A stretch of 28,191 nucleotides of DNA from Paraspadella gotoi (taxonomy: Eukaryota; Animalia; Chaetognatha): NCBI GenBank assembly GCA_051294375.1, contig JBJCIZ010000090.1:1-28191 (forward strand), read 5' to 3'. Under the pieces are notes generated by a model. The model did not search any database and was not told where the DNA came from. It saw only the letters and a program-made list of their open reading frames with translations. Positions within the stretch are counted from its first letter, which is position 1; every line of letters begins with the position of its first letter. A program made the translations under genes and the position numbers. This document shows, piece after piece, positions 1,621 to 28,191 of the stretch.

Positions 1621-2815
1621 AGAAATCTTTAAAGTCCATGAATTAATTTATTTATTGTAAAATCATGGGCTTGGTTTTTTAGTTTGTAATATATCAAATG
1701 TTTTTGATCTTTGGGCAATTTGTATAGTAAATTCTATTTTGATGACAAATGTTTAATGCGATCCGCTTGCTCGTGACGATTTTTAAAATGCGCTGTCTGA
1801 AAAAGGACTCACCGTCTTTTATGTTATATACCTGCTTATCTTTCTATTGCGGCAAATGGGCGTGAATGACCTGCCACTTACATTGACACGCTTATCCTTT
1901 AATAAAAAAGATTAAAGAGATGATATAAGATCGTTACGCACTAGAATCTATTCACGTAATAGAAATCCATTTGTAATGTGAAAAAAAAAATCCGTTTTCA
2001 ATATTATACAATAGACATTGGAATGCCATTTGCGCTGCCACATATATTTTTTTCTTGCTTAAAAGATTTAAAAACCTAGCGCATGGCCAATGTACTGCTT
2101 AAAAGATTTTACATAGATTCTTTATTTTGAAAAAAATGGAATCTTGTAACACTTGGCACTTAATCACCTGATCGCTGGTTTATTTAGTACATTTATCTAA
2201 CCTCATTAATATTTATTATGTTGCTATACATATATGAATCATTGTCAGCATTCTGTAGTCCATCACTCCATTTGTATCCATCCTAGATCAACGACTGTCA
2301 TCTCGTGATGTAAGAGAAATTAAAAAGGTGATTTAATACCTCTATTTTTAGAAAATAGTTTAATCTTTAATTTTTTTACCTATTTCTTCGGGTATCCTCA
2401 GAACGTCCGCTCCACTGCTTCGCTCGGGTCCATCCCTCTTCTTTCTCTCTTCTTTCTTCTTCTATGTCTCTTTCGCCTTCCTCCTTTCTCTGTTTGCTAG
2501 CTTCTCTCTCTACTCCCTCATAAATTCTGTCGTATTTCGTCTTTCCATTTCAAATTCTTCTTGTTTCTCGTGTGTCTCTCTTTATCTTAAGTTCTTGTTT
2601 CATCCTGTTTCTTGCGCGGCATGCACACCCATTCTACAAGCCATCTTGCACTCTGCTGTAATTATTGAGAATCGCTCTTGCCACTTCTCTTCATTTCCGT
2701 CTCTCTTTCCCTCGAACTCGTTCGTGAGGCTACTTGGCAGTAAAGTTGTAATTCTGTCCATCTCTTCGTTTCGGTTATTTCTTTGCCATTATCGCTGAGT
2801 CGAAGTGGTTTGCTA

Positions 2816-3887
2816 AATATTCGCTGCTACCCCACTCTCTTTTCCTCTCACCTTGCCTTGCTCTCTTCTTTCAATTAAGTCCTTGTCATTTCTAGGTATT
2901 CTTCTCTGTCCTCTGCCTTGAAAATTCCATGTTCTACGCCTCTTTAATGACAGATCCGGATGCCCAATTGGAGCAAAGACGATCACTTGACGACGTATGA
3001 TGATTATATCGAAAATTAGAAGAAGTTCTTTTCCATTCTAATTGTCTAATATGTATACCTATTGAATTTAATGAAATCTATATTAGCCGCGCCATCTTTT
3101 ATAAGATGTATATAGAAAATATTTACTCACGCGGTTGTCGATGGGAGTGCTGAAGAATTCGATGAGGGCGTCGTTTTCGTAGCGTTTTTCTTCGTTGGAT
3201 TCCTCTCGTTGAAAGACTTGATGACTGTTCTTCGTTGGCTTGGATCTTGTAATACTGTGCTGATGAAAATGAGGGAAGAGGTGTGTTGGACTGCGACTGT
3301 GGATGGTTCTTCTGTCGATGAAATCGAAGTTGGCCTCTCGGTTGCAATTTGTAGCTCGTAGATATGTGTGATAAAGGATGTGGATTAATGAGTTTGATGT
3401 AGTTGATTTGTGGACGTGTGTTTATTGAAGCTCGTAATATCCATGCGATGAAATTGATGGAAGAGGTGTGGTTGGACTCAATTGTGATGCGTCTAGTTGA
3501 AGAAATCAAGTTGGGCCTTCGTTGCAGATTGGACTTGTAAACATCTCGACGAATGGATTGATGAACGTCTGGATTGTGGTTGATTTGTGGGCGACGTTGT
3601 CGTGGAAAAGATTGTAGTTCTTTGTAGTGGAGTATTGCTGTGTCGTATTTGTGACTTAAAGTGGATGGATAAGATTTGCATTCGTTAATACCTCGAGATG
3701 ATTGATGATCTTGCATGTTGTTAAATGTGGGCGACGTTATTGAAGAGAGTGAGTCCTTTGTTAGAGCAAATGAAGTGGGAGTAGAAGTCGTGAATAGGGA
3801 GTTTATCGAAGTGACGATTGCCGGCGTTGTCGTTGACGTCAGTGAGACTTTCGTCGAGCGTTTCCAAGGCGGAATGTNNNNNNNNNN
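2816..3887 (-). CDS. Ser/Thr-rich hypothetical protein, probably spliced and indel-damaged; ATG hidden in the N gap
   Basis: A 266-codon ORF. The duplicate copy reads GCGATGAACATT.. at the position of the gap. There is a donor-like GTGAGT near 3130 and an acceptor-like TCAATAG near 3060, with an open frame beyond. Confidence 0.4.
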
Positions 3888-6800: not shown

Positions 6801-8763
6801 CTCCAAACTCGCTCCACTCTTCGCCGGGCCATCCCTCTTTCATTCCTCTTCTCATCTCTTCTATGTCTCTATCGCCTCCCCTTTTCTCTTCAGCTCTCTC
6901 TCTACTCCGCTCATAAATCTTCGTATTCCTCTTCCATTTCAATTCTTTCCTTAGTTTTCTCGTTCTCCTTCTACAAATCTTGTTTCAATCCTGTTCTTCG
7001 CCCATCACACCCATTCACACCCATCCAAGCTCTGCTGTAATATTGAAATCCTCTTCCACCTTTCTTCTTCCTCTCTCTCTTCCCCCGGAACTTCGGAGCT
7101 ACTGCAGTCTAATTGTAAGTTTCTTCTCATGCTCTTGTGCGTTATTCTCTGCCATTATCCTGAGCGAAGGTGGTTCCTAAATATTCCTCTACCCCACCTC
7201 TTTCCTCTTCACCTTCCTCTCTCTCTTCAATTCAGCCTTCTGTCATTTCTTAACTATCTCTTTCTCCTCTCCTGAAAATCCATTTGTCTCTACGCCTCTT
7301 TAAGCTAAGATTCCGATGCCCATTGCACAACAGACGATCACCGACGACGATTGCTATGATTAACGAAATTAGCAAGTCTTTTACCATTCTAATTTTAACA
7401 TTAACCTATTAATAAAAACTATATTAGCCCCCATCTTTATAATATTAAAAAAAATATTTACTCACTCGTTGCTCGATGGATGCTGAAGAGTCGGAGGCAG
7501 CCGTTTTCGTTAGCCCGTTTTTTCTCGTGGATCCTCTCGTTTGAAAAAGACCTGAACGTTCTTCTAGTTGGCGTTGGACTTGTAATACCTCGACTGAAAT
7601 GAGGGAAGAGGTGTGGTTGGACTCTACTGGTGGATTGCGTCTCGTCCGCATGAAAATCCAAGTTGGCCCTCGTTTGCCCAATGGACTCGTAATATGTGAC
7701 TAAGGATGTGGATAGTATGATGATGTAGTTGCATTTGTGGGACTGTGTTATTGGGACTCTAATACCCGATGAAATGATGGAACGAGGTGCTTGGTTGGAC
7801 TTCAAATTGTGGATGCGTCTAGTTGAAAGAACTCAAGTTGGCTTTCGTTGCAATGGGACTTGTACAACTCGACAAACATGATTGATGACACTCGATTGTG
7901 GCCTTGATTTGTGGGCCGACGTTGTCCGTGGAAAAGATTGAGTTCTTGTGTATGTGAGTAATTGCTGTCGTATTTGTACATAAATGTGGGGGGAATGGAG
8001 ATTTGGATTCGATATATATCCCTGATGATGATCGATGTTGTTAAGTGTGGGCCTCCGCGACGTTATTGAAGAAGTGAGTCTCTTGTTAGAGCTAAATGAA
8101 GTGGAGTTAGAAGTCGCCTCTTGATGATTAAGGAGTTTTATCTGCAACAAGGTGACGATTGCACGGCGCTTGCCGTTGGAGTCTAAATAATCGTCTGAGT
8201 GAGGACTTTCGGACTCGAGCGTTTCCAAGGCGAATGTTCATCGCGGACAATTGTCTTTCCAACCTTTAAAGAGAAAAAAAAAATTCATTCTCNNNNNNNN
8301 NNNNNNNNNNNNNNNNNTCTTTTGCCAATTGAAAGGCGAAAAAGATAATAAACAATAGACCTACATCGCCAGGTCCTAAATCTCCTAAGATGTTTGGAAT
8401 TAAAGAAAAGAAATGAATGATGACAAAGAGATGCATCCTTTGAAAATGGCGGAAAGGAGACGCGAAGGCGGTGGAATGAATGAATGCGAGAACAATCGAA
8501 AATAAAAGATTCGGATTAAAAAGAAACTTAAAAAAAAAGTTGTCTGGTGATAAGAAAGAATAATGTCTTTTGGCCCGCCTCTAAAAAAAACCCTTATCTT
8601 TAGAATTTGATCTCTTCTTTAAGACGAACATTCCGCAATGTATTTTGGGGGGGGAAAAAGGGTTTAAACTTTTACAATCTACTTTGTTAAAATTCTACCA
8701 TCTACTTTATTTTTTTTTAATCCCTTTTTTTTTTCGTTTGTCGCCCTCGCAGATTTCTCATGC

Positions 8764-8798
8764 TATAAAAAGCCTCGTCTTTTTTGATCTTTTCAGAT
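8764..8798 (+). promoter_or_regulatory. TATA box plus initiator for the + strand arm
   Basis: TATAAAAAGCC at 8764, TTCAGATT with its A at 8795 (31 nt from the TATA start), and the RING ATG at 8827. Confidence 0.6.
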
Positions 8799-8826
8799 TG
8801 TCGGTTTTTAAGATCATTTTCTTTAT

Positions 8827-9597
8827 ATGGAGGTTGACCAAGACATTGTTACATCTTTAAGTTGTCCAGTTTGTTTTTTGCATTTTACGACGAAAGATAA
8901 AATTTATACCTGCACTCAAGGTGAGAATAAAAAATGTGTGTCTTTTGTTTTTTTTTTAATTTTTTTATTTTCTCATCGATCCAAAAGATCGCTCTTATTA
9001 AAGTATTTTCTCGTTTAAAAACATAAGATTCCCTTTTCCCCTTACCCTGTTAAAAATAGGGCACCCCATCTGTTCTCAATGTTTTGAAAAAATTATTTGC
9101 AATAAAAACCCAACCTGCGCAATCTGTCGAAATTCGGTAATTAATATTAAGAAGTTAATGGAATAAAATAGAAATATTGTATATGGTTTATTTATTTAGT
9201 TTATAACTCGCTGCGAAATTTGCCATCAGTTTAAGTTTACAACATATTCAAGAGGCAGAGCTTTGGAAGAAGCTATCGCCATCATTGAAAAAAACAAGTA
9301 ACACCCCATTAATGATACCATTATTAATATTATTCTTTAAATATTTATATCTGTCTCTATCTCAGATCTGACATCCAATCTCGTGACTTGACCATTAATT
9401 TCTTACAAAGTTCTTTAAGAGAAAATCAATTGGACTTGATTCGTTTAAGAAGAGAAATTAGACGCAGAGATGAATTCGAACAAAACAATGCCCGCAAAAA
9501 GGTTAATACCTATGTCTATATCATTAATTTATATATTTTTATTATCAAGGTTTGTATTATTTAGGCGCTTGGATTTGACATCGAGTCAGGGAGATGA
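8827..9597 (+). CDS. C3HC4 RING-finger plus coiled-coil protein (putative E3 ubiquitin ligase), 5 exons (8827-8920, 9060-9136, 9200-9297, 9366-9501, 9565-9597), 145 aa
   Basis: The spliced product reads CPVC-x12-CTQG|HPICSQC-x10-CAICR, then CEIC..RGRALEEAIA and a charged helical segment. All four introns are GT..AG and the exon sum of 438 nt is in frame. Confidence 0.85.
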
Positions 9598-9734
9598 CGT
9601 AATTCCTATCGATCAATCGGTCGTTTTAATCGAAAACGATTTCTTAGCGGACAATGTCGCCAATCAGAGTGCCGGCAGTGTCTCGTCGACAATGGCTAAG
9701 AAGCAATGCAAGAGGTAAATGAAAAAAATATATA

Positions 9735-9765
<31 letters not shown>

Positions 9766-10393
9766 GACTTTTTTCTCTCGCTTAATCTTTTTAATTTTAC
9801 TTTTTTTAAGACCTCAAAATCTGTCTCTACGCCAATCAACCCTACACGAGTCAGATGGATTTGACGACATGCATCGTGGGTCAAAGATGGTCTTGTCTGA
9901 CTACTGGGTTCTTTCTCCCTACGTCATTGTCAAGTTCACCGAGGATGAGAGTGGCATTTGGATCTACAAGGAGAGATACATCCCTAATCCTCATATTGGC
10001 CACGGAGATGCATCGGTTACTACGATCGTTTCAAAATCTCGAGCCATCGAACCGGTCACAAAAATCACCGTGAACAAAGAGGAGATGGAACGTCTCATTC
10101 ATCTGTACGAAACGAAAGCCAAAGACGAGCTGAAGAAGCTGGAGAGTCTCAGCGACATCGCCGACACAGTTAACGGCCCGCGTTATGCCGTGACGGAGAG
10201 TTTGGGAATTTCGATGAGCGTCTACAAGACTAAGGACGACTCGTCGAAGGTTAACGTGTCTTTGCGTCCATATTTTATGGATCCAAATCTGGGTTTGCTA
10301 TTCGTCACGTCTAATCTGGCCGGAATCTCTTTAAGCGCCGATGAATTCCATGGATTGCTTAAATTGATTCAAAAGATCGTCAAAGTGATCTAA
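9470..10393 (+). CDS. PC4/Sub1-like ssDNA-binding protein (probably tandem domains), 3 exons (9470 or 9488-9501, 9565-9714, 9811-10393), about 250 aa
   Basis: The C-terminal VNVSLRPYFMDPNLG..AGISLSADEFHGL resembles the PC4 pattern vdIReyy.d....kGISL..eqw..L. Introns 9502-9564 and 9715-9810 keep the frame (765 nt). Confidence 0.75.
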
Positions 10394-10563
10394 AAAAAAA
10401 AAAACTTAAAAAGAAACATTAATAATCGTTTATAATTGGGAAATGCCATCTATGTAATCGTTACTATTAAGCTTGCAAAAAAAAAAAAATAAAATAAAAT
10501 AAAATGCGCGCGCATTATGCTTAATCATATTATTATTAATATATCAGATGAAAAGAAAAAAAA

Positions 10564-11386
10564 ATGGACGACGCCGAGATAGATTCGCTTAAAGAGGAAG
10601 ACTTTGTCGATGATTCGTCAAAAGACTTTTGGTTTATGACTCCGGGAGTGGGCGTGAGAGTCTCTTCGCCACCGAGAAGTTATCACAAATCGCATTTTGG
10701 CTTTTTAGCGAAACGTCTTCTTCAGTCTCTCATCGAGGTGGATCGAATCTTTCACGACAATTTTCGCCCCGCTCGATCACGCCGCTAACTTGACCGACGT
10801 AATCTATCGTCGTCGTCGGAGCGATTCGCCTCAATCCTGGCGAGAGGCGAAGGAAGATGTTTGTAGAACTCTGAGCACCTGCGCGGCGCCCGACCTTCAT
10901 TTATTGGGGATGTTTATGGATAGGGCTCTTTACGACGCTACTTCGATGACCGATATTATATCTGGTTTAAAACTAACTCAAAACTATTTTTCTCAAAACA
11001 ACGAAAATAGTCGTCATCTTCCGAAGGAAATGATTGTCATTCTCAGCACCATTGGTTGTGAGCTTCATCATTTATGTAAATGGTTCGAACGTTACGACGC
11101 CTGCTTGCCTTTAGCCATTTTGCTAAATGCGGAGGGAAAGATTTGGCGTTACAATGTTATCAGTCATAACAACATCTTTAAGGAGGACAATAAAAATCTT
11201 TTTAATAAGTATCATTTATATTGGCAGAGAGAAGTAAATATTTTGTGTCATGTAAATTCTCCTCACGTTTATTTTTCAGATCCGTATGAGGGTAATTGTA
11301 CTTGTAAATATTTTGAAGGTAGAATTTATAAAACAAGAATTTTAAATTTTTTAAATTGTGCGATTACACCCCCCTCTCTCGTTTAG
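10564..11386 (+). CDS. Hypothetical protein, probably one gene of about 270 aa broken by a 1-nt indel near 10765
   Basis: The 74-aa ORF with an A-rich ATG context abuts a 198-aa ORF that begins at TTG and whose frame is already open upstream (DHAANLTDVIY). No family recognised. Confidence 0.5.
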
Positions 11387-11388
11387 AC

Positions 11389-11994
11389 ATGACAGATTTT
11401 GTTCTCGTAGCTCTTCAAATTCTTAATAAATTTGGAAACGTCACCTTGGGAATTGATCAGATATACTTATCTCTCACTAAACTGGTTTATAACGTTGGAA
11501 GAAAGGACGACAAAAACTGTCAAATATCTCACGTCGTGTGTCTATTGGAAGATCTGTCTACTAACATTCTTTACGCAAAACTAAAACTGAACAAATATAA
11601 AAAATGTAAATATTTAGCGCATCAAAATATAAACCTCTTTCAGCGAGTCTTCGAAATGGTGGAAAATCGCCCAGTCAAACGAGAAATCGACCATCGTCTC
11701 AAAGATCTGTATCGCGGCGTCGTTGTCTCGATGCTCCACGATCTTTCTCGCTTCGTCATTAAAATTCGACACATCAGAAAATGCATGGAAACTATTAACG
11801 GTTCTTTAAAACATATGGGCGTACAAGCGATGGCCTTTCGTTATTTGCTTCCCACTATCAGTACTCTCGGCAATGTGGTTACTTTGACAGACAATGTTAT
11901 GAATGCCGTTTATAGCGATTGGTGTAATGATTTTCAATCTTCTTTGGGTTTAATGACGGAAGAAAAAGTTAATCAATTTAGACTATTTAATTAA
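11389..11994 (+). CDS. Hypothetical helical protein, 201 aa from ATG 11389
   Basis: Uninterrupted ORF with globular composition, packed between the previous stop (11386) and the pPolB start. No family recognised. Confidence 0.65.
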   Translation: MTDFVLVALQILNKFGNVTLGIDQIYLSLTKLVYNVGRKDDKNCQISHVVCLLEDLSTNILYAKLKLNKYKKCKYLAHQNINLFQRVFEMVENRPVKREIDHRLKDLYRGVVVSMLHDLSRFVIKIRHIRKCMETINGSLKHMGVQAMAFRYLLPTISTLGNVVTLTDNVMNAVYSDWCNDFQSSLGLMTEEKVNQFRLFN

Positions 11995-12032
11995 TATGTT
12001 AATTTCACTCTCTTTCTCTTTCTTTAGATCAA

Positions 12033-15000
12033 ATGTCGAACGTTATTATCGATTTGATTAACGACGCCGATTCGTCAGAACCATTGGATCTTAGCGCCGA
12101 CAAGACATGGCGCCTAAAACTAGAAGAGGAAAAAAGAGACGAGGGTCCCCCTCGGGCTCTACCACCCCCTCCCCCCTTTATCCCTCGCAAATTAACTTTT
12201 CCCTTCGAGAGCCGACGCGCGAACAATTTGACTTTTCCTCGGTCACCATTACAGTCGCAACGGTTACTGCAGCCACAGCAGCTGCAGCGAATGCGGCGAC
12301 GCTCGCAACTGCTTTTTCGCATCGCCTCGATAGATCCTGCGAAATTGAAAAACGACTCTCCCTCGCTCTTTTCTCCATCGCCTCCTCGACGGCCTCCATC
12401 GCCTCCTCGACGGCCTCCATCGCCTCCTCTCTCGCTCTCTCTCTCTCGGTCAATGACGTCGCCCCAATCCAAAAAAACATCTCCGTCGGAGTTCAAACGG
12501 AAATGGGAATCGAAACCGCCGATATTTATGACGGGAGGGGGGCTTTCAAACGAATCGGACAAAACCTTTGGTCCCTCTCGAGAGACATCGACAGAGAGTA
12601 CGAACTCAAAAACGACCAAGGCTCGTTTTAAAGCTCGAGAAGCGGGAGAGGAGGACGTTGAGGAGGTGAATGAGGTGGAAGAAGACGACGACGACGATAA
12701 AGTCAACAACGAAGGTTTAACCGCCCCCAAGTTTTCTAGATTCGACGTAAAGTGTAAAAAGTTTAAGAGAAACGTATTGATTAATGTACAGTTGATTCCT
12801 CTCGAAGGCAGTTTTCATTCTCACAAAACCTACGAGATAGAGTCAAGACATTTAAAAAAAGAAATTCTACCAATTATTGAAAAGGAATTGAGAAGGAGAG
12901 GAGTGATTAAACTCCATTTATGTTTTTTGATTAGGTTTTATAACGAAAGAGAAAGATCATTCATTTCCTATTTTTTTGATCAAAAGAGCATCGTATTGTA
13001 TCAATCTGACGATATAATGCAAATTCTCAGTTCCATGATGGCCAGACTACTCAACCAAATATCCGATAGGGTAGAATTAGGTTCTGATATTAGTTATGAC
13101 AAAATAGAAAGAGCCGATCTCACTTTAGCTGGATTTTATCCCAATTCTGGAAAAAACACCTTTTTTGGCTGCTACATCGCCACGCCAAAATGGCTAAAAG
13201 TTAAAAAATGCACGGTGAATGTAAAAACTCGATATCCCTCTTGTTTAAAGATGTCGCTCTTAAGTTGTCTTTATAAACCTACTCATCACCCGGAATTAGA
13301 GAGCAGTTATAAAAAATATGCCCATAAAATTAACATGACTAACGTCTCTTGTCCAGCCACGCCCAATTCGTTTTTACACGTCGAAAGATTGAATCAGGAT
13401 CTCTGCATCAACGTCTATGGCACCATGAAAAGGCGAGAAAAGAGAGGATATAGGCGAATTGTCTACCCCTATCGAATATCGAAGAGGAATGGAATGTTAG
13501 GAGTGAAAGTTTGTAATTTGCTCATATTAAAAAAGAGAGAGGGCGATGTTGTTCGTCGTCATTTGGTATCTATTTCCGATCTTTCTCGTTTAACATCGAG
13601 CCAATTTTGTAAGCAAACTGGTCGCCGCTTCGTCTGCCCCAAGTGTCTTTTTAGCACTCGCTCTCCCAACGCCTTCTCTCTTCACTCTCGCTTGTGCGGG
13701 CGAGAGACGGCGACCGCTCAATTAGAAACCTTTCCACCAGAGGGCACGTTTTTAAAGTACGACGCTCGTGAAAACTTTTTTCATTCTCATTTTTGCTTCG
13801 TTGCCTACGGCGATTTTGAGACGAGGTCCCTGACCACTCATTCGGTAGACAGAGAAGATGCGGAACGGATGCCGCGACTCGACTGGTCGTGGATCAAGTA
13901 CTCTTATCAAAACAATCACGCGAAAAAATGTAATAAATGTAACGAGTATGGACCATGCGAAAAAGTAAAGGAAAGAGTCGAACCGATCGCTCAATTGTCC
14001 GCCATCAGTTACTCTTACAAAATTCAATCATCGTTTCCCTCGGACAATTTTCGCATTCGTAGATATCTTGGCGAGGATGCGGGTCTTCATTTTCTTCGTC
14101 AAGCTCGTTTAGATTCGATGACTATTGGCAAACTATTGCGAAAAAATGCGCCTATGATCATGACGGAGTCAGACGCGATCGATTTCGATTTGAAAGAATT
14201 TTGTTATTTTTGTAAAGAAAAATTTTTACCCGGAGACCGAGTCTGCAGACACCATAATCACCGTTCAGGAGCCTATGAAGGCAAATCTCACGTAATATGC
14301 AACGCCAAAAACAATTCGGCCGACAGATGGATCATGTATTTTCACAAGTAAGAAATTAATTATTTAAAAAGTTTATAACAAATTTGTAATCGTCTCTATC
14401 TCTCTNNNNNNNNNNCTCTCTCTTTTTTTTTAGCGGGGGCAAGTTTGATTCCAATCTTATTTTACAAGCCTGCGCCCTGAAGGAAGCCAACAAGTTGGTT
14501 AGAAATATTCGCAATGTATTAGCGAAGGGAAATACCTTCTACACTTTAGACATCAATTTTTTATGCGATTATTGTTCTCAGCGAGTAAACGACGACGCCA
14601 TAGACGATCGAGATGAAAATGACGACGACGACGATGACGACGACAGCGACGATGAAGACGATAAAGAGGACGAAGGTGAAGAAGAAGAAGAAGAAGAAGA
14701 AGAGAACGACGTCGATCGACGTTTATATTGCAAATGTTACAAGATGGCGACCTTAACCATCAGAGATTCTTATAAGTTTCTCATAACTTCGCTTAGCAAC
14801 CTCATAAGCTCGAGAGTCTCCGAATGTTTTCAGATTTCGTGCGCTCTCTGCGGAGGTGGGGGAGGCAGAGTGGAATGTGTCAGTTGTCGAGATAAGAGTC
14901 ACCCCTCTCTAGTTTTTCCTCTCGCTTACGACCACGTGATTGAGAATTTTGGGGAAGAGAGCTTGTTCGACCTCGTTTCCATAAAGATGACCATGCCATT

Positions 15001-15171
15001 TAACTACCTGACCCTGGAGACGATCAAGGAGACTCAACTTCCGCCCAGAGACGAGTATTTTGACGAGTTGCGTCAAACGTTGATCTCTCAAGAAGAATAT
15101 CTCAAGATTTGCGAGATTTGGGACGTTTTAAAGTTTAAAAACTTAGGAGAATTTCTTCTCTTTTATAACGT

Positions 15172-15211
<40 letters not shown>

Positions 15212-15742
15212 AAAAAGAAAGAAAGAAAGAAAGAATCTAATTATATCATTTTTATTTAGGATTTGGATTCGTTGTTTTTAGCCGATATCTTTGAAAATTA
15301 TAGACTGATGAATAGACAGAATTTTAATCTGGATCCGGCCTTTTATGTTAGCGGAGCGGCCATAAAGTAAGCGATAATCAATCAATCAATCATTCAATCA
15401 ATCAATCAATCAATAATCGTTTTTTCAGTCAGGACATTATGCTTCAGTTTTCGAAGATAAAAATCGAATTATTTTCTGCGGCAAAACGACAAGAGTTTCT
15501 GGCGTTCGAATCTATGCTGAGGGGTGGTTTCGTTGCCGTCAACTCCAGATACTTTTCCGGTTCTTCGAACGAATTGGGTTACAACGACGACGACCCTGAA
15601 TTTCCGGCGCGCCTGATCGTTCACGAAGATGCGAATAATTTGTAAGTCTCTCTCTCTCTCTTTTTTTTTTTTTATTATTAAACGTCGATCGATCTACTTA
15701 TCTCTCTCTCTCTGTCTCTCTCTCTCTGTCTCTCTCTCTCTA

Positions 15743-15775
<33 letters not shown>

Positions 15776-17783
15776 CGCAGGTACGGATACGCCAGTCGCT
15801 TAGCCTTACCCTACGGAGGTTACGCCTTCGTGAATCGGGAACGATTGAACGAAATTAAACGAGATATAGAGAGAGGCGCCTGGCGAGATTGGACGCATAG
15901 GGACGAAGAGGGAGAGGGGCTTATTCTCGAAGTCACTCTGCGTACGCCGGATCATCTGCATCACGCCATGAAAGACTTTCCCATCTTACCGAGAAAGCGT
16001 AAGGTGCGAGCGGAGGATCTCAGTCCCTTTAGCCGTCGATTGGCCAAAAAATATCGCCACAAAACGGGCGTCGTCGAAAAGCTCGTAGCCTGTCTAACGC
16101 CCAAGGAAAAATATTTCTTGACCAGAGAGAGCCTCGCCTTCGCCCTCTCGACCGGTTTGGAGTTGATCGAACTTCATTCGGCGATTCGATTCGATCAAAA
16201 GCCCTTCATGAAAGAGTTCGTCGACCACTTTTCTCAAAAAAGGAGAGAGGCTAAGACCCCCTTTCTCAAAACATTTTACAAGCTTTGCGTTAATTCGGTC
16301 TTCGGTCGAACCATAATGAATCGACGCCTCTTTCAAACGGTCAAGCTGGTCAGGAGTCCCGAATATCTGTCCAAGCTCGTCTCCAGAGTAGATTTTCATT
16401 CCGTTAACTTGATCTCCTCGAGTTTAGCCATCGTTAAATTAGCCAACGTCAAGGTCAAATTGAACTCGCCCATTATGGTGGGCGTGTCCATCTTGGATAG
16501 TAGTAAACTTTTAATGGGTAGATTCTTTTACGAAGGGGTCAAACGAATCTTTCCGGATTCGAGAGAGGACGCCAGAGTTCGCTTAGGCTTGACCGACACG
16601 GATTGTATTCTCATATCTCTCGAATATAGACAAAAAGAAACCCCGCGCTCCAATTTTTGGCGCGATTTGGGCAAGTTGACGCCGTGGTTGGACACCAGCA
16701 ACTACTCTTTAGACCACCCGTTGTTTTTAAACGTCTCTAAAAGAGCCCTTCCCATCGTGTTAGCCTATAGAGAGAGAAATAAAACCAGAGTGGGATTCTT
16801 CAAGGGTGAGTTTTTTTTTTTTTACTTTTTTACTTTTTTTCTTTCTTTCTATCTTTCTTTCTTTCGTTAATTCCTTTTCATCTCCCTCTCGACCAACCGC
16901 AGACGAACACCCTAACCAATATTTGGCGAGTTGCGTGAATCTACTGCCAAAATGTTACTCTCTCTCCCTCGTCGACCAACCGGCAAACCCTCCCTTACGA
17001 TTCGGAGATCTAGACGACGACGAGGACGACGACGACGACTCTCCTCCTCCGCTACCCGACGAAGAGGAGATTGGCGGGGATTTAGAGTCTTACCACGTAC
17101 GACGCAAATTACCATGTCCTCCGCCCGTTCCTCGTCCCTTCGATCGCGAGGCGGATTGGCGTCGACTCTTGGAAATGATTTCTTCCTCGTACTCCTCCTC
17201 TTCCTCCTCATCCTCCTCCTCCGACAACGACGACGACGACGGCGTCGACGAGAAAGAAGACGAGGAAGAAGACGTCGCCGCGGCGGCGTCCTCGCCGCCG
17301 CGAATCGCAGCGGCGGCCTTGCCGCTGCGCGCCGCCGCAGTGCGGCGGCGACGGGACATGCCACCGGCCGTCGCGGCCGCGACGGCCGCGTGCACGCAGG
17401 GCGTGCACGCAGCGTGCACGCAGGGCGTGCACGCAGCGGGGACTCCGACTCCGACGGAAGAAATAAGGGCCAAGGGGACTTGTAAATCCACGATTAGAAG
17501 AGAGCTGACTCACGAAAAGTTTCGAGACGCCTTGAAAACTTTAATCCCCGTCAGAACGACTCAGAGACAGATCAACGCCGACAAGCTAATTCTTTATTCA
17601 AAAAAAATGATCAAGAAAAGCGTAAGCGCTTCGGACGATAAGAGATTCTGGCTGAATAAATTTCACTCTCTAGCTCTGGGCGATTATCGGATCGATCGTT
17701 GGGAGGAAAGGGAAAGGGAAAGGGAAAGGGAAAAAAGACAAAACAAAAATAAAAGGAACGTGGAAACGATAATAATTGATTAA
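12033..17783 (+). CDS. pPolB: Protein-primed family B DNA polymerase, 6 exons, about 1758 aa: 12033-14347, 14434-15169, 15260-15366, 15429-15641, 15781-16805, 16903-17783
   Basis: Splicing at GT..AG gives one frame of 5277 nt. It contains ExoI YGDFET, ExoII YFHN|GGKFD, ExoIII YN|DLDSLFLADIFENYR, MLRGG, motif A EDANNL|YG, motif B KLCVNSVFG, motif C TDTDC, VGFFK|DE..LLPKCYS, RAKG and DDKR. The N-terminal part has the Polinton-type YIxxP..VNV..C / HLVSISDLSRL region (vOTU-like Cys/His), a zinc finger (CPKC..H..C) and an EndoVII-like CxxC..RHHNH..H..CN insert. Confidence 0.96.
12373..12429 (+). repeat. 21-bp in-frame tandem repeat (about 2.7 copies) encoding PSPPRRP
   Basis: CTCCATCGCCTCCTCGACGGC repeated. 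Confidence 0.9.
17365..17435. repeat. 24-bp perfect palindrome followed by four GCGTGCACGC palindromes (24-bp unit x2)
   Basis: CGGCCGTCGCGGCCGCGACGGCCG at 17365-17388; GCGTGCACGC at 17388, 17401, 17412 and 17425. Confidence 0.9.
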
Positions 17784-17886
17784 TTGATTTAATTGATTGT
17801 TCGTTTATAAACAATACATACTATACACAATATATACAGACGTTTCGTTTCATTTATTTAATTAAGTTAACAACTTCTCCAATATT
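17784..17886. terminator. Convergent 3'-end/polyadenylation region between the two gene arms
   Basis: AT-rich gap between opposing stops, with AATAAA on - at 17858-17853 and on + at 17748-17753. Confidence 0.4.
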
Positions 17887-18500
17887 TTAGAGACGTCGTC
17901 TTCGTCGTCGTAATTGTTGTCGTTGTTGTTGTCTCTCCCCCCTTCGAGAGCAACGGCGTCGTCGTCCCTTGTTTTTTTCGTTTCGACGACGCCTTTTGTT
18001 TTTTTTACCGTCGACGGTGAGAGAGGGAGAGGGAGAGGGAGGAGGAGGAGGAGGAAGAGGAGGAGGAGGAGGGAGAGAGGGAGGAAGAAGAGTAAGAGGA
18101 GAATGTGGGGGAGAGAAAGGGAGGGTGAAGGATGGCAATAGGTCGACGTTGAAGACGACGACGACGATGACGACGACGACGTCGCCGACGCGGTCGATGA
18201 CTTTTTCTCTTACTCTCCTCGACGACAAACTGATCGCCGCCTCCCGCGGCGAATGGAATTTCGCCGAGATATTCGGCCGCTCCCGAAGCGGCGATGGCGG
18301 CGTTTAAGGCGCCTTCGTCCGAGTTTATGAGAGAGAGATTTAACCTCTCTCCAAATCCGGAGTCTTTGCAGAACGCGGCGACGATCTCGTTCGTCGACTT
18401 CGCCGCACGCTCGCGCGATTCAAAATTGTCGATGCTGAGGCATCGACTAGAATTTCGTCTCAACGCCGAGGTTACCGCCGAGGAGACGAATCTGTAAACG

Positions 18501-18532
<32 letters not shown>

Positions 18533-19076
18533 GTTAGTAAAAAGAATGTACATCCGAAGAAACGAACGAACTAACGAACGAACTAACGAACAAATAATTA
18601 CCTCAGAGTTNNNNNNNNNNCGGGTTCGAGGACGAGGGCAGTTCCGTAGGGTCCCATTTCTGATTTCCAAGAACTCGCCGGATTCCCGGCAAACTTCGGG
18701 AATCGGCCGCGTCCTTCGCCACCGTCGACGAAGGCGAATCCCCTTATCGCCACCCTGGGGAAAATTCGTCCGTCGATTCGAAGATGGAAACGACTAGCGA
18801 CCATCTGTCGCTGAGTATTTTAAACCGCGGCTCCATGCCACCCATTCTCCCGCCGACTCTATTTAGTCTACTCTCGACGTAAGTAAGTTCTTCGTCTCCA
18901 AAGGCTAACGCCTCCACCAACGCCCTCCACTCGGCGAGCTTAAACCACAGAGTCGAGAGTTCGCTTCCATTCGGTTTTGTCTCTTGAATTCTCACGGAAT
19001 TTGTCTCTAGGTTTGCGTGACAAGTGACGCTAATGCGCTCTCCGATTGAAAACCGAGCAAACACGGACGAGTTCAT
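17887..19076 (-). CDS. Second PC4-like protein with low-complexity tail; intron 18601-18492; frameshifts and an N gap; 3' end uncertain
   Basis: From ATG 19076 it reads ISVTCH..VRIQETKPNG..LWFKLAEWRAL, then after a frame change VAIRGFAFVDG..FPKFAG. Both resemble PC4 strands plus helix. Splice sites are GAG|GTAATT and TTTACAG. Confidence 0.5.
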
Positions 19077-19240
19077 CTTCTTTTTTTTTTTTCTTCTTTC
19101 ACCTTCGATGTAATAAAAAAGACGAGGGCGATGATTTAAGAGATCGCGATTGTCACGAAGATAAGTTTTGTTTGATCTTTTAATGGATCCTCTTTTATAC
19201 TCTGGTTCGCTAAGAGCGTCTTTCTCGAAGGAAAAAAAGA

Positions 19241-19280
<40 letters not shown>

Positions 19281-19906
19281 AAATGCGGGATCTCTTAGTA
19301 CATCACTCTCTCTCTTTTTTTTCTCCCCGATGTTGTCTCGCGATAAGTTATCGTCATTTTGGCTTTTTTTTTTTTTTATTTGGAATCGATTCAACTTTTT
19401 TTTTTTTTTATATTTAAAAACAGATATCTCCGCCTCTACATTAGCCGCTCTTTAACATCTAGAGTCGTCGATGGGGGCGAGGGAAAGGACTCTCTCTCTC
19501 TCTCTCCCGCCAACCAAACGTCGTCCCTTCGCCATTCCGACTAGACATCGCGTCCCTTTGCCATCTTTGCCATCGTCGTCTTCTCTCACATTTTTTGGAT
19601 TATTTTTTTGGATTAAACAATGTAAGTTGATTTATTTTAAATTTTTAAGTTTTTTTTGTAGAGATTTAGTCGCGACATATTATCGCCAGTTAATGAATTA
19701 TCCGATGCCGCTTTTTTTTTTGGCGATCGCCTCCTGGAACGTCGCCCGCTACCCGTTTGATTTTTTTTTTTTCCAATTTTTCTCCTTCTTTTTCTTCCAC
19801 CAAATTGAGTCGCCGTTGTTTTTTTCTCCCCCCTCGATCGCGCTTTCTTCTTTTAACCATTTTTTTTTTTAACGACGATTTTTTTCCCGCTTTGCTTTTA
19901 TAGTCT

Positions 19907-20413
19907 TTAGTAATGGTTTGGGGGTGATAGTATGGGAATAATATGTCCGTCTCGAGCGTCTAATGACCTAATTAGCAGCGTCGCCACGACGTCGTGTTGA
20001 AGAGTGTCCTTGACCCTGGGATAGTCGTAGACCTCGGTCATTATTTGTTCGGGGGTTAATCCTCTGCCGAGAAAGAGTAAAAATACCAAACAATGAGCGA
20101 AGCAAGTTTGAGTTTCGGGCGATTGAATGGGCGTGTCCAAGTAAACGATGGGTTTTTGCTCGTTCGTGAAGATGTGAGGGGGGAGATTTAATTCTACGGG
20201 AGTTCTGCCAAAACTGTCCATCAAAAAGTATCTCTCGGGGTCTGAATATAGTAAAACCCAATGGTTCCCGGGTAGAGAAATTTTTTGCAAATTTGAAAAA
20301 TAAGCCACCCCCTCAACGAGGGGGGGGACCGTATCAATCGCGTAAATGCCGCCGTAAATCGAGCGGGCGGGGGGGTCGGAGAGGGCGATTTTATTCATTT
20401 CGTCGCTGTTCAT
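19907..20413 (-). CDS. PRO: Adenain-like (clan CE) cysteine maturation protease, 168 aa
   Basis: Catalytic His (GNHWV), Asp (MDSFG) and Gln/Cys (IQSPETQTCFAHC) occur in adenain order, directly downstream of the MCP gene. Confidence 0.93.
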   Translation of the reverse strand: MNSDEMNKIALSDPPARSIYGGIYAIDTVPPLVEGVAYFSNLQKISLPGNHWVLLYSDPERYFLMDSFGRTPVELNLPPHIFTNEQKPIVYLDTPIQSPETQTCFAHCLVFLLFLGRGLTPEQIMTEVYDYPRVKDTLQHDVVATLLIRSLDARDGHIIPILSPPNHY

Positions 20414-20433
20414 TTTTTTCTTCTTCTTATTTT

Positions 20434-21878
20434 TTAAAAATCTTTGATTACGCGGCGTTGAGCGTCAATCGCAATCGTTGCGCTGTATTCGCAAAATAAA
20501 AGTAAAGTTAAACTTTTATTAGAACTCGTTGGTTCAAAAACGGCCTCGACGCGACAACTGACGAGCTTTCTCGGCATCACGTGATCGGCGAACGGCCCTG
20601 AATATCTCCCATTCGACATTACGTAAATGGCGTATCCTCCGTAAGCAAATTGTTCCATGGTGATCGGGAGACCCGTGTTAAAACGAAAGTCGGATTCGTA
20701 AAGACGATAATAGGCGAGAGAGAAATCCTTTTCCGCCGAAGTCTTTGTAAAATTAGTTTGGATTCCTCCCTTCGTAGGTAAAGTTTCATCCTCCGCTATC
20801 AACTTGAGCGACGTTAGAGAAAAATTTTTAAATTCGAAGGGATTCGTGCCAAAACTACCGAGGTAAGCCTCCGTCTCGCAGAACGCAATGGCGCAAAAGT
20901 CCGGGAAGATGTTATTAGGGAAAACATTTTCAAACGTGACGCTTTTAGCGTTCGCCGCAATCGTAAACACTCGAGTCGACGTTTCTCTGGTGTGATATCT
21001 GGCGCTTTTAGTCTGAAGAGATCTCTCTATGTTAAGTTTGACCGATGGCAAAACTTGAAGCTTGCGCAAATGCAATTGCATTTGTTTGACGTTAAGGGCG
21101 AAATCTGGCGTCGTGGCGCTGCTGAGTAAACAGAAAGCGTCGTTTGATTTTACGAATTCTAAGGAACTCGTTACTTGCGGAATGAGACACTTGTTTTGAC
21201 AAAAAAGACCCAGATTTATGAAGCCAATCAATCGCACGACATTTCCACGACCAAATAATTGGGCTCTAGTTTTAAAACCAGAGGCCGAGGCGGCGTCTTG
21301 AGACTCATTCGCCGCAAAGTCATCGTCGAAGGCAAATCCCGTGGTCAATAACTTGGGATAAGCTTCTTGAGAATAGTTGAGAATGGTATTGAAGTAAGAC
21401 GTAAAGGCGTAGCTAAAATAAAAATAAAGAGGGGGGGAGAGGGAGAAAGGGATAAGACGACGAACGAGAGAGAGAGAGAGAGAGAGAGAACTTACGTGGA
21501 ATAGTTGTCGCTTAGATTTTCCGAATTTATTTTAAAGTTAACATTTTGCCATATGCTCGATGAAATTGCATTAACGATTCCAACGCTCGTCGCCGCATCC
21601 GTTATGGCCGGGATCTTACCACCCGATTTTGTCGTGATTGTTAAGTCGACGGTGTAAAAAGTGCCATTCATGTCCAGAAAATCCGAAGACGGCGGTAGAT
21701 CGAACAAGATGGTGTTATTGTTGGAACCGCTGTCGATCGCATTGGTGGGGTTAATGACGTCATATCGAACTCGTTCGATACCGACGGCTTCGTTGACGGC
21801 TTCAAAAATATCCAAAGCACTTTCAACACACGGCTCTCCTTTCTTAATGCCAGCGGCGCGATTCAGTTTATTTTCCAT
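20434..21878 (-). CDS. MCP: Major capsid protein (double jelly-roll, Polinton PY-type), 2 exons (21878-21496, 21412-20434), about 453 aa
   Basis: An intron 21495-21413 (GTAAGT..(CT)n..TTTTAG, phase 2) joins the 128-aa and 304-aa ORFs through NYST|YAFTSYFNTILNYS. Polinton-MCP-like motifs include SALDIF, GSFGTNPFEF, FAYGGYAIY and a C-terminal CEYSATIAIDAQRRVIKDF. Confidence 0.92.
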
Positions 21879-21906
21879 TTTCTGTTTTTTTTATTTTCCT
21901 TTTTAT

Positions 21907-22467
21907 TTAATAAAAGATTTTTAAACGGTGATTAATTTTTCTCTTCTTTCTCTTTCTCTTTTTACCCCTACCCCTTTGCGCTTTGCCTTTTATAACAATT
22001 TTGGCTTTAGGATTTTTTGTTTTTTTGTTGTTTTTTTTAAGTTGAGCTGCGAGAGGTGATTTAGAAATTAAATCGCCGATGGTTCGAGTCGTTCCTTCGA
22101 CTAATTCATCTTTCGCTATTTTTCCAACTCGTTTAGCGCCTAACTTCAAAGATTTCTTAGGCGATTGACCACTGGTCAAATCACCCAAAGCCGATACGCC
22201 CGACGAGAGAGCTTCCTTGGCTATGGCTTTGCCCGTGCGTTTTAAGGATTTTTTAATGGTGGGCGCGACTGCTTCTATGCTCGGTTTGATGAGAGACACC
22301 CCCTTTTTAAAAAAGGGGACTACGTATCTGGCTAAACGAGAAAAAACTGATCCAACGCCTCGACCAACCATCGGTTGATAGGGATGAAAGGGCGCCAGTC
22401 TTCTGAGAGGATAACCCCGCCCTCTTCCCCGATGAAACGGAAGTTTTATATATTTTATTTCACCCAT
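21907..22467 (-). CDS. Basic virion core / membrane-lytic protein (adenovirus pVI-like), probable ATG 22467
   Basis: MVGRG matches the adenain consensus (M/L/I)xGx-G and is followed by an amphipathic helix, VGSVFSRLARYVVPFFKKG. The tail is very Lys/Arg-rich. The gene lies between penton and MCP. Confidence 0.72.
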   Translation of the reverse strand: MGEIKYIKLPFHRGRGRGYPLRRLAPFHPYQPMVGRGVGSVFSRLARYVVPFFKKGVSLIKPSIEAVAPTIKKSLKRTGKAIAKEALSSGVSALGDLTSGQSPKKSLKLGAKRVGKIAKDELVEGTTRTIGDLISKSPLAAQLKKNNKKTKNPKAKIVIKGKAQRGRGKKRKRKKRKINHRLKIFY

Positions 22468-22499
22468 TTTATGATGATTTTTGTTTTTGTTCTGTATTT

Positions 22500-23532
22500 T
22501 TAAAACCTTTGTAGTTTTCGACGAAAATGAAGCAAAGCCCAAGTCAATCCTTCCTAAGAAAAAAAAGGGGGGGTTTTTATAGAGACGAGACGGCGAGAGT
22601 TAAAACAAAATTATTTTTTTATTTACCTCAAAAACGATAGTTTGACCAAAAAAGTTTTTAACTATCAGATGCAAAACGTCCAAATGCATTCTCTCAACCT
22701 CCAAGTATATGGGAAATTTAATGTGGACCAAAATGCGAGACGGTTGTTCATCCTTTTTTTCTTTTTCTACCGGAATGACCTTCAACAAATTAGAATAGAC
22801 GCCCGAAGTGCGCCACCTCTTTAAAAAATTTGCATAAATTAAAATTGCCGTGTTTACGTCGAGTTGAATCGGGAATTCAAACTTGGTATCCTCATCGTCG
22901 TATTTACATATCATAGTCAAGTTTGGATTCGCAAAATGTCTCTTAACCTTGTGCCCAGTGCCATCCATATCGTTATATTCATAGTCGTAACTCGTTCCTT
23001 CTTTAGTTTTTCCAATCGTCACCACCTTTCCACTTTGAGGCGCGGTATTCATACCCAAGAGATAAAGAATACTACCAACTATCTTCATTGTAACATATTT
23101 ACCCCGCAATTTGTAACCAATTTTTCTGTCATCTTCGTCAAAATAGAAGGCGTCTTTGACGCGAGGAACTTCCGAGGCGATTAACTTGTTCAATTCGACG
23201 CACAGTTCTTTCCCAGTCTGATAATTCCCCGAGGGGATCCGAATATACGTCAGTCTTCCCCAAAGGGGAAATGGGGGTGCATCCGATACCTTATAGAGCC
23301 AGTCATAAATCTGGAGATAGTTATCTTCCGGATTGTGTATGTTGTAAAAATGATTAATGTAGCTGAATTCTAATATGGCGCATTCCCATATTCCTCCTTC
23401 CAACTGAATCGGATCCGGAAGTCGATTTTTAAAATCTCCGCTTTTATTGCCCTTGACGTAGGTTCCTTCATCCACGTCAGACGACATCATGACGTAGAAA
23501 TCGTCCTCCCCGGTCGATAAGGTCGTTGACAT
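22500..23532 (-). CDS. mCP: Minor capsid/penton protein (single jelly-roll), 2 exons (23532-22627, 22553-22500), about 319 aa
   Basis: The N-terminus FYVMMSSD..NKSGDFKNRLPDPIQLEGGIWECAILEFSY is typical of Polinton pentons. An intron 22626-22554 (GTAAAT..TTCTTAG) supplies the expected C-terminus IVFE|EGLTWALLHFRRK. Confidence 0.88.
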
Positions 23533-24712
23533 CTTCTTTACTCATCCAACGCCCTAAATCGGTGTCGCTCGATTTAACCAAGTAGGAGGTCGACTGACCC
23601 GATCTACGACCAGATCTTAATTTTCTGCCTTCGATTTTCCGCGTTTTAACGACAAAATAACGATTTTCTTGCGGCGTCTTAGGTTCTTTAGCCGCAACCA
23701 ATTGATGTTCGTAGTAAGTTTTGCGCGAGTTTTTTAATTCTATCACTGTCACCCCGGACGGCGCGCGGTTTTGACTCTTGAATCCGAGACACGCCGAAAA
23801 CAACTCATTCCCAACTTTTGAAGATATCCTCTGGAGAAAGTTGTTTTTTTCAGAGCTCTTTTCAAACTGACCAACCTTGAAGAGAGGGCGCCTTTTAGCA
23901 AATTTAGCGCGGTGAACCGTCGTCTAGCCTTTAAATATTTCTCTCTCAAAAAGGCTTCGTTTTTAGCCAGATGAGCTTGGAGGGCGATAAACCAAAGAGA
24001 CCCGCTCTGGTCTGGCGTTGTAGGCAACGACGCAAGGTTCCAAATACTTGGCAAAGTTCCAATCGGACATAGCATACATGACTCTATACAGGTAAGATTC
24101 TATGGTAGAGTTGAAGGATTCGGCGAGAGGAGCTTTGTTTCCCGTCGACGGGTAAATCGGTTCGATCTCTAAAGCCTTCATTAGTTTGGCAAAGTCACCA
24201 CTCCACTCTCTTCCGGCGTCCATGACATGTAGTCCGGCGCTTGAAAGTCATTAGCCTCGATGATAGAGGCGAATGCCGAAGCAACTTCGACGGCTCTCTT
24301 ACTCTTAAAGCCCTACACCAACCCTTTTTACTAAAAGCAGTCGACGCATGAAAAAAAGTAAGCGTAGCCATTAGAACGGGTCTTCAAGGCTTGAGCGTCT
24401 ACGAGATCGATGCTAAATTCTGAGTTCTTCTTCTTAAAACATAATATTTTCTAAAAATCGCTTAGGGGGGCGTTTATAATCTGTAAAAACTCTCTGCGCA
24501 CTAAGAAAGGATTTCACATCGGCTTTAGTGATAGATTGATCCCGTCGACGAGCCGCTTGAAGGACTCTAGAGATTGTTGAAAAACCAGCCGGATGCTTAG
24601 GATCGTAAATAATATCACCTATAATCACATTTTTTTTCCCTTCAGAGTCCGATGTAGCCGCAAATCCTTTTTTAGCGACGGAGGGTTGGGCATCTTTGTC
24701 CAAGGATACCAC
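23477..24712 (-). CDS. INT: Retroviral-like DDE integrase with C-terminal chromodomain-like tail; several frameshifts (sequence error or pseudogenisation); start uncertain
   Basis: The N-terminus IYDPKHPAGFS..VKSFLSAQRVFTDYKRP is Maverick-type. Catalytic segments are FSIDLVD..GYAYFFSCVDCF (about 24415-24333), MDAGREW and KAPLAESFNSTI, then YNARP and TFSRGYLQK. The tail reads YLVKS..RWMSKEDV. The pieces lie in different frames. Confidence 0.9.
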
Positions 24713-25523
24713 GCCAATTTCGTCGTTTGCTTTCTCGATCTCGTTTTAGGAGGCGACGACAACGTCGTCTGAGTGACGGGAGTTTTTTTCTTCTTTGGAC
24801 TAACCTTCTTTTTTTCTTCTTTTTTTTCGAGGTGGCGACGATAATAAAGTCGACGTCAACTTTCCAACGGCCGTCTTAAAGGGGGACGATTTTACCGGCG
24901 AGGTTTTGGTGGGTGGTAAAATTGGCGCAATTTTTGGTCTGGTAGATGGCGATAGAGTGGCGGTAGCTTGAAGGCTCAACTTTTGAAAGGTAGGGGGGAA
25001 TCTGCGATAGGTTTTTTAGTCCTTTGACTCTTCAACCAAAATAGATAATTTTGAATTTGATCCGGGGTGATTGATTTGGTGTAGGATAGGTGATTAGCAA
25101 TCTCATCTAAATCACCAATCGGCGTTTTGTCCAAAAAAACTCTTCCTTTTTGCGATTTAACGCCCTCTAGCGAAACGATCTCTTTTTTTATTTGGTCGCG
25201 ATTTCTCGACCATCTGGCTTTGTTAATGTTTTCTATGAGAGGCGAGATTCTCGACTCGAGCCCTTCCAATCTCTCTCAAGCTGATTTTCCGCCAATTTTC
25301 TTGATTTGACGAAGTCGCTGTGGAAGTCAATCATATATTGATCCTCCGGGACTTTGATAGATTTTGGTGGAATTGTAGGCGTGGCTGCTTCAAAGGCGGC
25401 GGAGTCTACCGGGTGAGTGGGAGAAGAAGAGAAAGGGAGAGAAGAACCAAACCTTCTCTTAAGATCTCTTTCCGAAAGAAGAACCATTCGCTCCGCATAT
25501 TTCATTGGTCTTTGCGCCGCCAT
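24700..25523 (-). CDS. Polinton-associated hypothetical protein (KYAERMVLL N-terminus), frameshifted; 3' end uncertain
   Basis: ORFs 25523-25233 and 25269-24976 overlap in different frames. Coding-like Lys/Pro-rich sequence continues toward the integrase start. Confidence 0.5.
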
Positions 25524-25546
25524 TTAATAGTTTTTTTCTTTTTTTT

Positions 25547-25917
25547 TTATTTTTTGTTAGCCGCGGCTTCAGGCATGAGACTGATAAGCGTTGGCGCTAG
25601 AATAGATAGTAGGGCGCCTAACATACCTCCCTTTTGTACCATTCGCTTGCGGAGCTTCATGGGCGAACTTCTCAGAGAAAGGGCGTGCATCTGTTTCTTA
25701 TATGGGCGAAGTCTCGAAAGTTGGCGCGGCGTTGTAGTAATGTTTCGCTTGAGAACATTGAGACAAATTTCACTCAAACAAATGCAGGCGTCGTTAGACT
25801 TTTTAGAACGCCAAAAAGCTTTTTGTTGTTTGGGTGGTAACTTGTTAACCCTTTTTAGGAGCGGAACCTGATTGGCAAATCGCTCCCTAAGGCTTCTGCG
25901 TCGTTTCTGGGCTTCAT
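25547..25917 (-). CDS. Small basic pX-like core protein; probable ATG 25917 overlapping the ATPase stop, needing one frameshift near the 5' end
   Basis: The frame is open from about 25930 to 25547 and reads ..CLSEICLNVLKRNI..RKRMVQKGGMLGALLSILAPTLISL. The xxGG+hydrophobic tail resembles adenovirus pX (LRGGFLPALIP). Confidence 0.7.
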
Positions 25918-26768
25918 GATCTTTTGCTGCGATAGGCTATCATCGGCGCCTCAAAAGGAAATATTTTTGTTCTGACTTTTAACGATTCGCACTTGCTATG
26001 ACAATGACAATCGACGAAAAAGATAAGGAAAGGAATGATTAGTATTTTCCAGATTATCCACATAACATTCGATGAGAAAATTGGGTTTATCCGGATATAA
26101 TTGACGCCCAAGCGTTTGAAATATCGTGCGGTCTCGTGGGATATTTTGTCAAGACTATATAGGATGCGTTAAGATTCAATAGACGCAATACTGGATTTTG
26201 TCTCGAATACAAATTGTGCACGATAAAAAATGCAGCTCAATCTCTGAAAAGAAGAGAGAGAGAGAGAGAGAGGTTATTATTTAAATTTAATCAATGAATC
26301 AATCAATCAGTCTCACCGTGTGATGACTGAGAACGCAAAATATTTTTCTCATTAAGTTTGGATCCACCGTGTCTTCGATGTCGTCGCAGATCAAAAGGCT
26401 GTTTGGGGTTTCCGCAAGGTCGTCAACTTGATCAAATGTGGGTGGGCCTTGAGAGAGGGTTGCGCCTGGGAAGTTTTCCGAGTTATATTGTTCCCCACCG
26501 GCTTGATAACAAATTAAAATTTTCTTGAAGGGTACGTCGACGATTTCTTCGGCGTTTTTCACAAGATTGGAGCAAAATGTAGTTTTTCCTAAAAGATTTA
26601 TATAATAAAACCATCTGTTATATACGCGCGGGGGGGAGGGGGTGGGGGAGATAAAAAGTAATTAAAATAAAAAGTACCAGAATTACTCGCTCCGCAAAGA
26701 ATCATACAAAACGGGGTCAATAGGCTGACATTATATACGTTTTCTTCATTTAATATATTATCGCCCAT
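25914..26768 (-). CDS. ATP: A32/FtsK-like genome-packaging ATPase, 3 exons (26768-26678, 26588-26317, 26243-25914); exon 3 has several 1-nt indels
   Basis: ATG at 26768. Walker A GASNSG|KTT is rebuilt across intron 26677-26589 and Walker B is LLICDD. SHHT|RLSCIF spans intron 26316-26244. HNLY, LNASYIVL..P, LGRQLYP and VRTKIFP follow in shifting frames. Confidence 0.9.
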
Positions 26769-28185: not shown

Positions 28186-28191
28186 AAAGAA

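Follow-up and report, generated by a model that had tools for sequence, protein, structure and literature searches.

The window analysed here is a 28,191-nucleotide stretch of contig JBJCIZ010000090.1 from the chaetognath Paraspadella gotoi (assembly GCA_051294375.1). Judged from sequence, its gene content between 8.8 and 27 kb is that of a Polinton/Maverick-type element, with the marks of this group matched in a protein-primed DNA polymerase B (pPolB), a retroviral-type (rve) integrase, a packaging ATPase, a cysteine protease and a double jelly-roll major capsid protein (MCP). GT-AG introns interrupt the polymerase, capsid, ATPase and accessory genes of this element, and the host spliceosome likely excises them; we hold this reading with a probability of about 0.8. 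At the level of DNA, the intron structure is genuine and has good support, and from it we infer that the 15 segments are spliced. An earlier inspection of the letters of the window by a model (the original prediction) had proposed host-type spliceosomal introns in Polinton core genes, and splice signals together with the continuity of homologs bear this out at the DNA level. All 15 of the proposed introns were located; every one of them has GT-AG ends, and their lengths are 62-139 nt with a median of 86 nt.

Nine of the introns lie in core genes, namely those of pPolB, the ATPase, the MCP and a putative penton. The pPolB gene (12033..17783, plus strand, six exons) contains five. Intron 1 (14348-14433, phase 2) splits the FHN motif of ExoII; it contains a gap of 10 N, and both of its ends are sequenced. 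Intron 2 (15170-15259, phase 0) lies in the YN..D motif of ExoIII, carries an (AAAG)n repeat and has a stop in all frames. Intron 3 (15367-15428, phase 2) carries (AATC)n, intron 4 (15642-15780, phase 2) splits the DANNLY motif of PolA and carries (TC)n, and intron 5 (16806-16902, phase 1) splits G.FKDE. The remaining core introns are on the minus strand. In the ATPase gene (25914..26768, three exons), intron 1 (26677-26589) splits the Walker A glycine codon and intron 2 (26316-26244) follows SHH. The MCP gene (20434..21878) and the putative penton gene (22500..23532) each have two exons, with introns at 21495-21413 (phase 2) and 22626-22554 (phase 0), respectively. Each of the nine core introns either has a length that is not a multiple of three or carries a stop in every frame, and the core proteins would therefore depend on splicing.

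The other six introns are in small genes. A RING-finger (C3HC4) gene of five exons on the plus strand (8827..9597), whose frame was checked, has introns at 8921-9059, 9137-9199, 9298-9365 and 9502-9564. The last of these is shared with the next plus-strand gene (9470..10393, three exons), which overlaps the RING gene at 9470-9597 and uses the common intron in a different reading frame; its own intron is at 9715-9810. One more intron (18601-18492) was found in a second small gene on the minus strand (18008..19076, 3' end approximate). The original prediction held that removal of the introns restores the reading frame. This is the case for pPolB, MCP, the putative penton, the RING gene and the overlapping gene, but the last exon of the ATPase has an internal stop as assembled. 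When the exons were translated singly in the phase given by the introns, no internal stop occurred in pPolB (1758 codons), MCP (453), the putative penton (319), the RING gene (145) or the overlapping gene (254).

Seven of the 15 junctions (pPolB introns 1-5, the MCP intron and ATPase intron 1) are fixed by intron-free homologs, and the chance of finding GT..AG at all seven is about 7e-11 when 13 slides are allowed for each. A profile built from 33 pPolB homologs of at least 1000 residues (of 39) placed the exon edges of junctions 1-4 in consecutive columns (559|561, 705|706, 740|742 and 807|809), with column edges extrapolated by up to 4 residues. Junction 5 restores G.FKDE, a motif present in 32 of the 33 homologs. 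The MCP junction is contiguous in all six of the closest homologs tested. At ATPase intron 1, the register across the Walker A glycine codon is contiguous with that of a distant metagenome locus, L001, whose A32-like ATPase is matched by exons 1-2 (E 3e-6). For RING intron 1, support comes from the C3HC4 pattern and from weak Pfam matches; exon 2 of this gene matches positions 19-40 of the 40 in zf-C3HC4, below the cut-off. ATPase intron 2, the penton intron, RING introns 2-4 and the intron at 9715-9810 were placed by splice signals and frame only. For the intron at 18601-18492 the frame gives no guide, since an N gap and a frame break precede it upstream, and splice signals alone were used.

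The introns resemble U2 spliceosomal introns in their GT-AG ends, donor consensus and pyrimidine tract. The donors have a purine at +3 in 14 of 15 cases, an A at +4 in 14 of 15 and a G at +5 in 8 of 15. The signal scan anchored 14 introns correctly and one incorrectly, and among the former, 12 have at least 10 pyrimidines in the 15 bases before the acceptor. The GC content is 30% in the introns and 45% in the exons counted. Non-triplet microsatellites make up 29% of intron bases, compared with 0.2% of exon bases, and are present in 12 of the 15 introns; such confinement is to be expected if only segments cut out of the RNA can bear slippage. We considered a common introner origin and rejected it. 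Pairwise matches between introns consist of microsatellite or T-rich words of at most 21 nt, and since the introns share only such repeats, they do not form one introner family.

Reads were compared for positions 8700-16800 with one public run (X1). Its contigs have a flat depth of about 12-14, with spacers and introns both covered, and they contain RING introns 1-4 in full as well as the beginning of pPolB intron 1, without any difference from the window; these stretches are thus present in the reads, as the original prediction required. The same run yielded short contigs of a diverged pPolB (corresponding to 15551-15952), in which, read in the spliced frames, 13 of 18 differences are at third codon positions (p=0.0009). 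This hints at a second member of the family that evolves under purifying selection. The original prediction spoke of a whole lineage with this gene architecture, for which just these short pieces from the same run give slender support.

The core-gene introns set the element apart from the Polintons described in the reports compared here. Animal Polinton/Maverick elements (PMC8097293, 10.1101/2022.07.12.499685, PMC10748475) share with the window pPolB, rve integrase, ATPase, protease, double jelly-roll MCP and a putative minor capsid protein. In the available text of these reports, however, their core genes are intronless, whereas pPolB, MCP, the putative penton and the ATPase of the window bear introns. 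Intronless core open reading frames (ORFs), which the window lacks, are a described trait of intact elements rather than part of their definition. As far as the text of each source goes, no introns were found in intact Mavericks of vertebrates, and 'introns' returned by Genewise were treated as decay (PMC8097293); in nematodes, the core genes were called intronless and introns were placed only in captured cargo genes (10.1101/2022.07.12.499685). Intron-free viral genes have been given as the justification for ORF callers (PMC10120064, PMC9356565), and one survey, in the part of it available, applied ORF cut-offs of 900 aa for pPolB, 390 aa for MCP and 190 aa for ATPase (PMC10748475). The longest open pieces of these genes in the window, from stop to stop, are 782, 365 and 120 aa. 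A survey with those cut-offs would filter the element out, as had been foreseen. The further claim that such an element would be largely missed is a little strong; pPolB exon 5 alone matches Pfam DNA_pol_B_2 (PF03175, E 5.5e-8), and a survey would pick the element up yet rate it as degraded. The nine core-gene introns indicate that the intron-free assumption, as it is worded in the available parts of these surveys (PMC8097293, PMC10120064, PMC9356565, PMC10748475), can fail. Counts of 'intact' versus 'degraded' Polintons may therefore be biased in intron-rich hosts.

Other related systems differ in the kind of intron or in where it occurs, each being compared here through the available portion of its report. 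Alpha-class adintoviruses (PMC8502044) share the PF03175-type PolB and the module of integrase, capsid and protease; the class is defined by a PolB whose N-terminal domain is OTU-like, an integrase chromodomain and an animal host, and the window was compared by PolB type and module. Splicing is never mentioned in the main text of that report as available. Maverick-polinton-like proviruses of dinoflagellates (PMC11957031) likewise have intron-type sequences inside full-length elements. These belong to repeated introner families gained mostly after integration, whereas the introns of the window share microsatellites only and its exons are in frame with homologs. Polinton-like viruses of cryptophytes (PMC12220804) also contain introns in a Polinton-like genome, but these are self-splicing group I introns, 309-376 bp long, and they sit in a small gene next to the MCP, unlike the short GT-AG introns in core genes of the window. 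In giant-virus insertions, captured genes keep their introns (PMC11244446). The literature searched, including preprints and the available text of PMC8502044, PMC11296320 and PMC6431247, did not describe any Polinton whose core genes carry in-frame spliceosomal introns; such cases could be present in Repbase, in supplements or in the founding papers from 2006-2007.

Three distant metagenome loci, L001, L002 and L003, were found. The pPolB of L003 is continuous, and L001 and L002, which are 99% alike and come from two collections, have one GT-AG intron each in pPolB (L001:5568-5875, 308 nt; L002:6536-6842, 307 nt). This intron is near profile column 759, a position unused in the window. Both indels between the two loci lie inside the intron, with none in 3900 exon bases. 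This suggests that intron gain in Polinton-type polymerases is not unique to the element of the window. A fourth locus, L004, was rejected as a relative; its match spans 35 residues, and the contig does not resemble a Polinton. In a tree of pPolB exon 5 (41 rows, with P0039 left out and P0032 dropped as it had no anchor motif), the window is on a long branch in no supported group, and its join with L001-L003 was flagged as possibly false.

We favour tolerated intron gain in a lineage that has long resided in the nucleus. TATA-like boxes are found at 8764 (before the RING gene) and 26810 (before the ATPase gene), and others precede further genes. The element would be transcribed in the nucleus by host RNA polymerase II, and its GT-AG introns would be removed by the host U2 spliceosome. 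Its lineage would have been resident for a long time in an intron-rich eukaryotic, probably animal, host, where it may have gained introns one at a time and not from a common introner sequence, with selection maintaining the reading frames of the exons. Replication in the nucleus would make the introns tolerable. An unspliced transcript would give truncated proteins, and all core functions would then depend on host splicing. The life cycle would then, as in adenoviruses, take place in the nucleus and depend on the spliceosome. The element could also serve as a compact system for the study of intron gain in genes whose relatives have none.

Several observations weigh against this proposal. A branch-point-like YTRAY is present in just 5 of the 14 correctly anchored introns. 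The X1 contigs contain no spliced joint at any intron within the positions compared; the run behaves as DNA, and it may be the source sample of the assembly. As assembled, the frames of the integrase, ATPase exon 3 and two further genes are interrupted, at places that lie beyond the positions compared with reads. Searches of viral contigs, GTDB and metagenome loci found no close relative. Polinton/Maverick termini are terminal inverted repeats (TIRs) with (AGT)2 or (AG)3 ends, flanked by a 6-bp target site duplication; neither was seen in the window, whose ends are not joined by an inverted repeat. The record seems to end short of the element's termini.

The most serious alternative accepts the introns as real but takes this copy for a dying or partly domesticated remnant, in which decay has reached the integrase and ATPase, the polymerase and capsid genes having stayed in frame until recently, so that the copy is immobile. 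We consider this possible, at well short of even odds. Frame breaks are found as assembled in the integrase, ATPase exon 3, two small genes that we presume to be PZ-like and PW-like, the second small gene and one accessory gene; the clustering of frame shifts in the first four of these would fit decay, as would the missing TIRs and the long pPolB branch with its large low-complexity inserts. However, these four lie in one stretch, and the assembly shows raw-read noise elsewhere. Positions 1-8762 contain one 4.4-kb stretch twice, and the two copies differ by some 240 small indels on each side and by 177 mismatches in about 3.5 kb aligned. They are probably the left arm of the element filled in with raw long reads. 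A true tandem repeat was rejected for this part of the window, as the differences are mostly indels and occur on both sides. The X1 contig differs from the window by small indels in 10564..11994, and the single frame break that could be tested within 8700-16800 is absent from it. The diverged second pPolB copy in X1, under apparent purifying selection, also speaks against a remnant. On balance, assembly error is a somewhat more probable cause than decay for the frame shifts at 23.9-27 kb, and this copy may therefore still be competent. The original prediction had called the genes intact, which holds for pPolB, MCP, the putative penton and the protease, whose frames are open throughout; as assembled, frame shifts affect the integrase, ATPase exon 3 and neighbouring genes.

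A second alternative holds that the introns are adaptive, either disguising the element as a host gene against surveillance of intronless RNA or gating the polymerase through introns in its catalytic motifs. In conservation, all five pPolB junctions rank between the 86th and 99th percentiles (p=5e-5 when all columns are counted and 7e-4 from ExoI onward). Exons 1 and 5 of this gene are long open frames, and the bias to conserved sites is therefore not simply due to introns missed elsewhere. Introns are also known to counteract HUSH repression in human cells, according to the available text of PMC8770142. However, that is a result from vertebrates, the MCP junction is only at the 67th percentile, no intron was seen in the integrase or the protease, and the pPolB test comprises five sites with homologs chosen by exon 5 similarity. 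We consider an adaptive role unlikely; the bias of the pPolB introns may be adaptive (as a gate or as host-gene mimicry) or a by-product of intron persistence. Equally doubtful is a broader proposal, that intron-bearing Polintons are a widespread and still mobile class hidden by ORF surveys, with introns in catalytic motifs that lend the guise of host genes and place polymerase and capsid under the control of splicing, retention of pPolB intron 1 then giving an N-terminal product that lacks the polymerase. It is very improbable that the segments are unspliced, gene-inactivating insertions rich in microsatellites or artefacts of a noisy assembly, as two introns that adjoin or contain N gaps and the missing RNA joint in X1 might suggest, given the GT..AG ends at all seven homolog-fixed boundaries, the unchanged introns in the X1 contigs and the open pPolB exons.

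The pPolB protein contains ExoI, PolB, PolC (DTD) and KxY-like motifs in addition to those split by introns. Exon 5 has 39 homologs at 29-37% identity, the one named homolog being from a mussel (30%). The protein is about 470 residues longer than the median homolog owing to in-frame low-complexity inserts (D/E/S, P/S and A-rich) at 16960-17460, 14585-14710 and 12100-12700. A GC-rich insert of 500 nt in exon 6 was considered as a sixth intron and rejected, as it is in frame and no splice pair was found in it by a strict scan that itself picked up no more than 4 of the 15 known introns. At 12003-12033 is a strong acceptor-like site whose end is 5 bases ahead of the pPolB start codon; no convincing donor was seen close to it, and it may take a spliced leader from upstream.

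A full HMMER search using MCP exon 2 returned 3002 proteins at E 0.001 or better, and word-index protein searches returned no relative of this exon or of the putative penton. A structure model of MCP exon 2 built from 117 sequences has a predicted local distance difference test (pLDDT) score of 92.6 and matches the capsids of Paramecium bursaria chlorella virus 1 (PBCV-1), Singapore grouper iridovirus (SGIV), Sputnik and mavirus; the predicted fold is like that of double jelly-roll capsids. Single-sequence fold prediction (pLDDT 30) was unusable, and sequence searches of the PDB gave no significant match. The closest MCP representatives are continuous ORFs of 439-459 aa. The nearest Atlas clusters are mostly from Mollusca or Arthropoda. 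The gene at 22500..23532, for which no homolog or family match was found, we tentatively take to be a penton from its position and a C-terminal motif.

The genes of the element span about 18 kb, to which the probable 4.4-kb arm is added. On the plus strand, the RING gene is followed by three accessory genes and pPolB. The first of the three accessory genes, the one overlapping the RING gene, has no assigned function; it and the second small gene at 18008..19076 had been labelled PC4-like, and searches of Pfam, PDB and Atlas gave this label no backing in either case. The other two (10564..11994) have no recognised introns, and the first of them has one frame break as assembled. The minus strand carries the packaging ATPase, two small genes, the integrase, the putative penton, a basic protein, the MCP, the protease and the second small gene. 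The two small genes next to the ATPase (24800..25936), which look conserved, are each frame-shifted as assembled. The integrase (23480..24745) is in several frames as assembled and matches the rve integrase of L003 (E 1.4e-9); no intron was seen in it, and its span has no acceptor-like site. The basic ORF (21907..22467), possibly a core protein by its composition, has no significant Pfam match. The adenain-type cysteine protease (19907..20413) is encoded by one exon of 168 codons. It has no direct Pfam match but matches the protease of L003 (E 3.6e-5), itself a weak Peptidase_C5 match.

At the right end of the window (26840-28191) are AT-rich plus-strand genes with splice-like signals, which may belong to the host or to the element. 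The probable left arm (1..8762) seems to carry minus-strand genes with introns of their own. Near the start of the window is a repeat of 45 bp that may be subterminal; it contains, on the minus strand, the motif AGTAGT.

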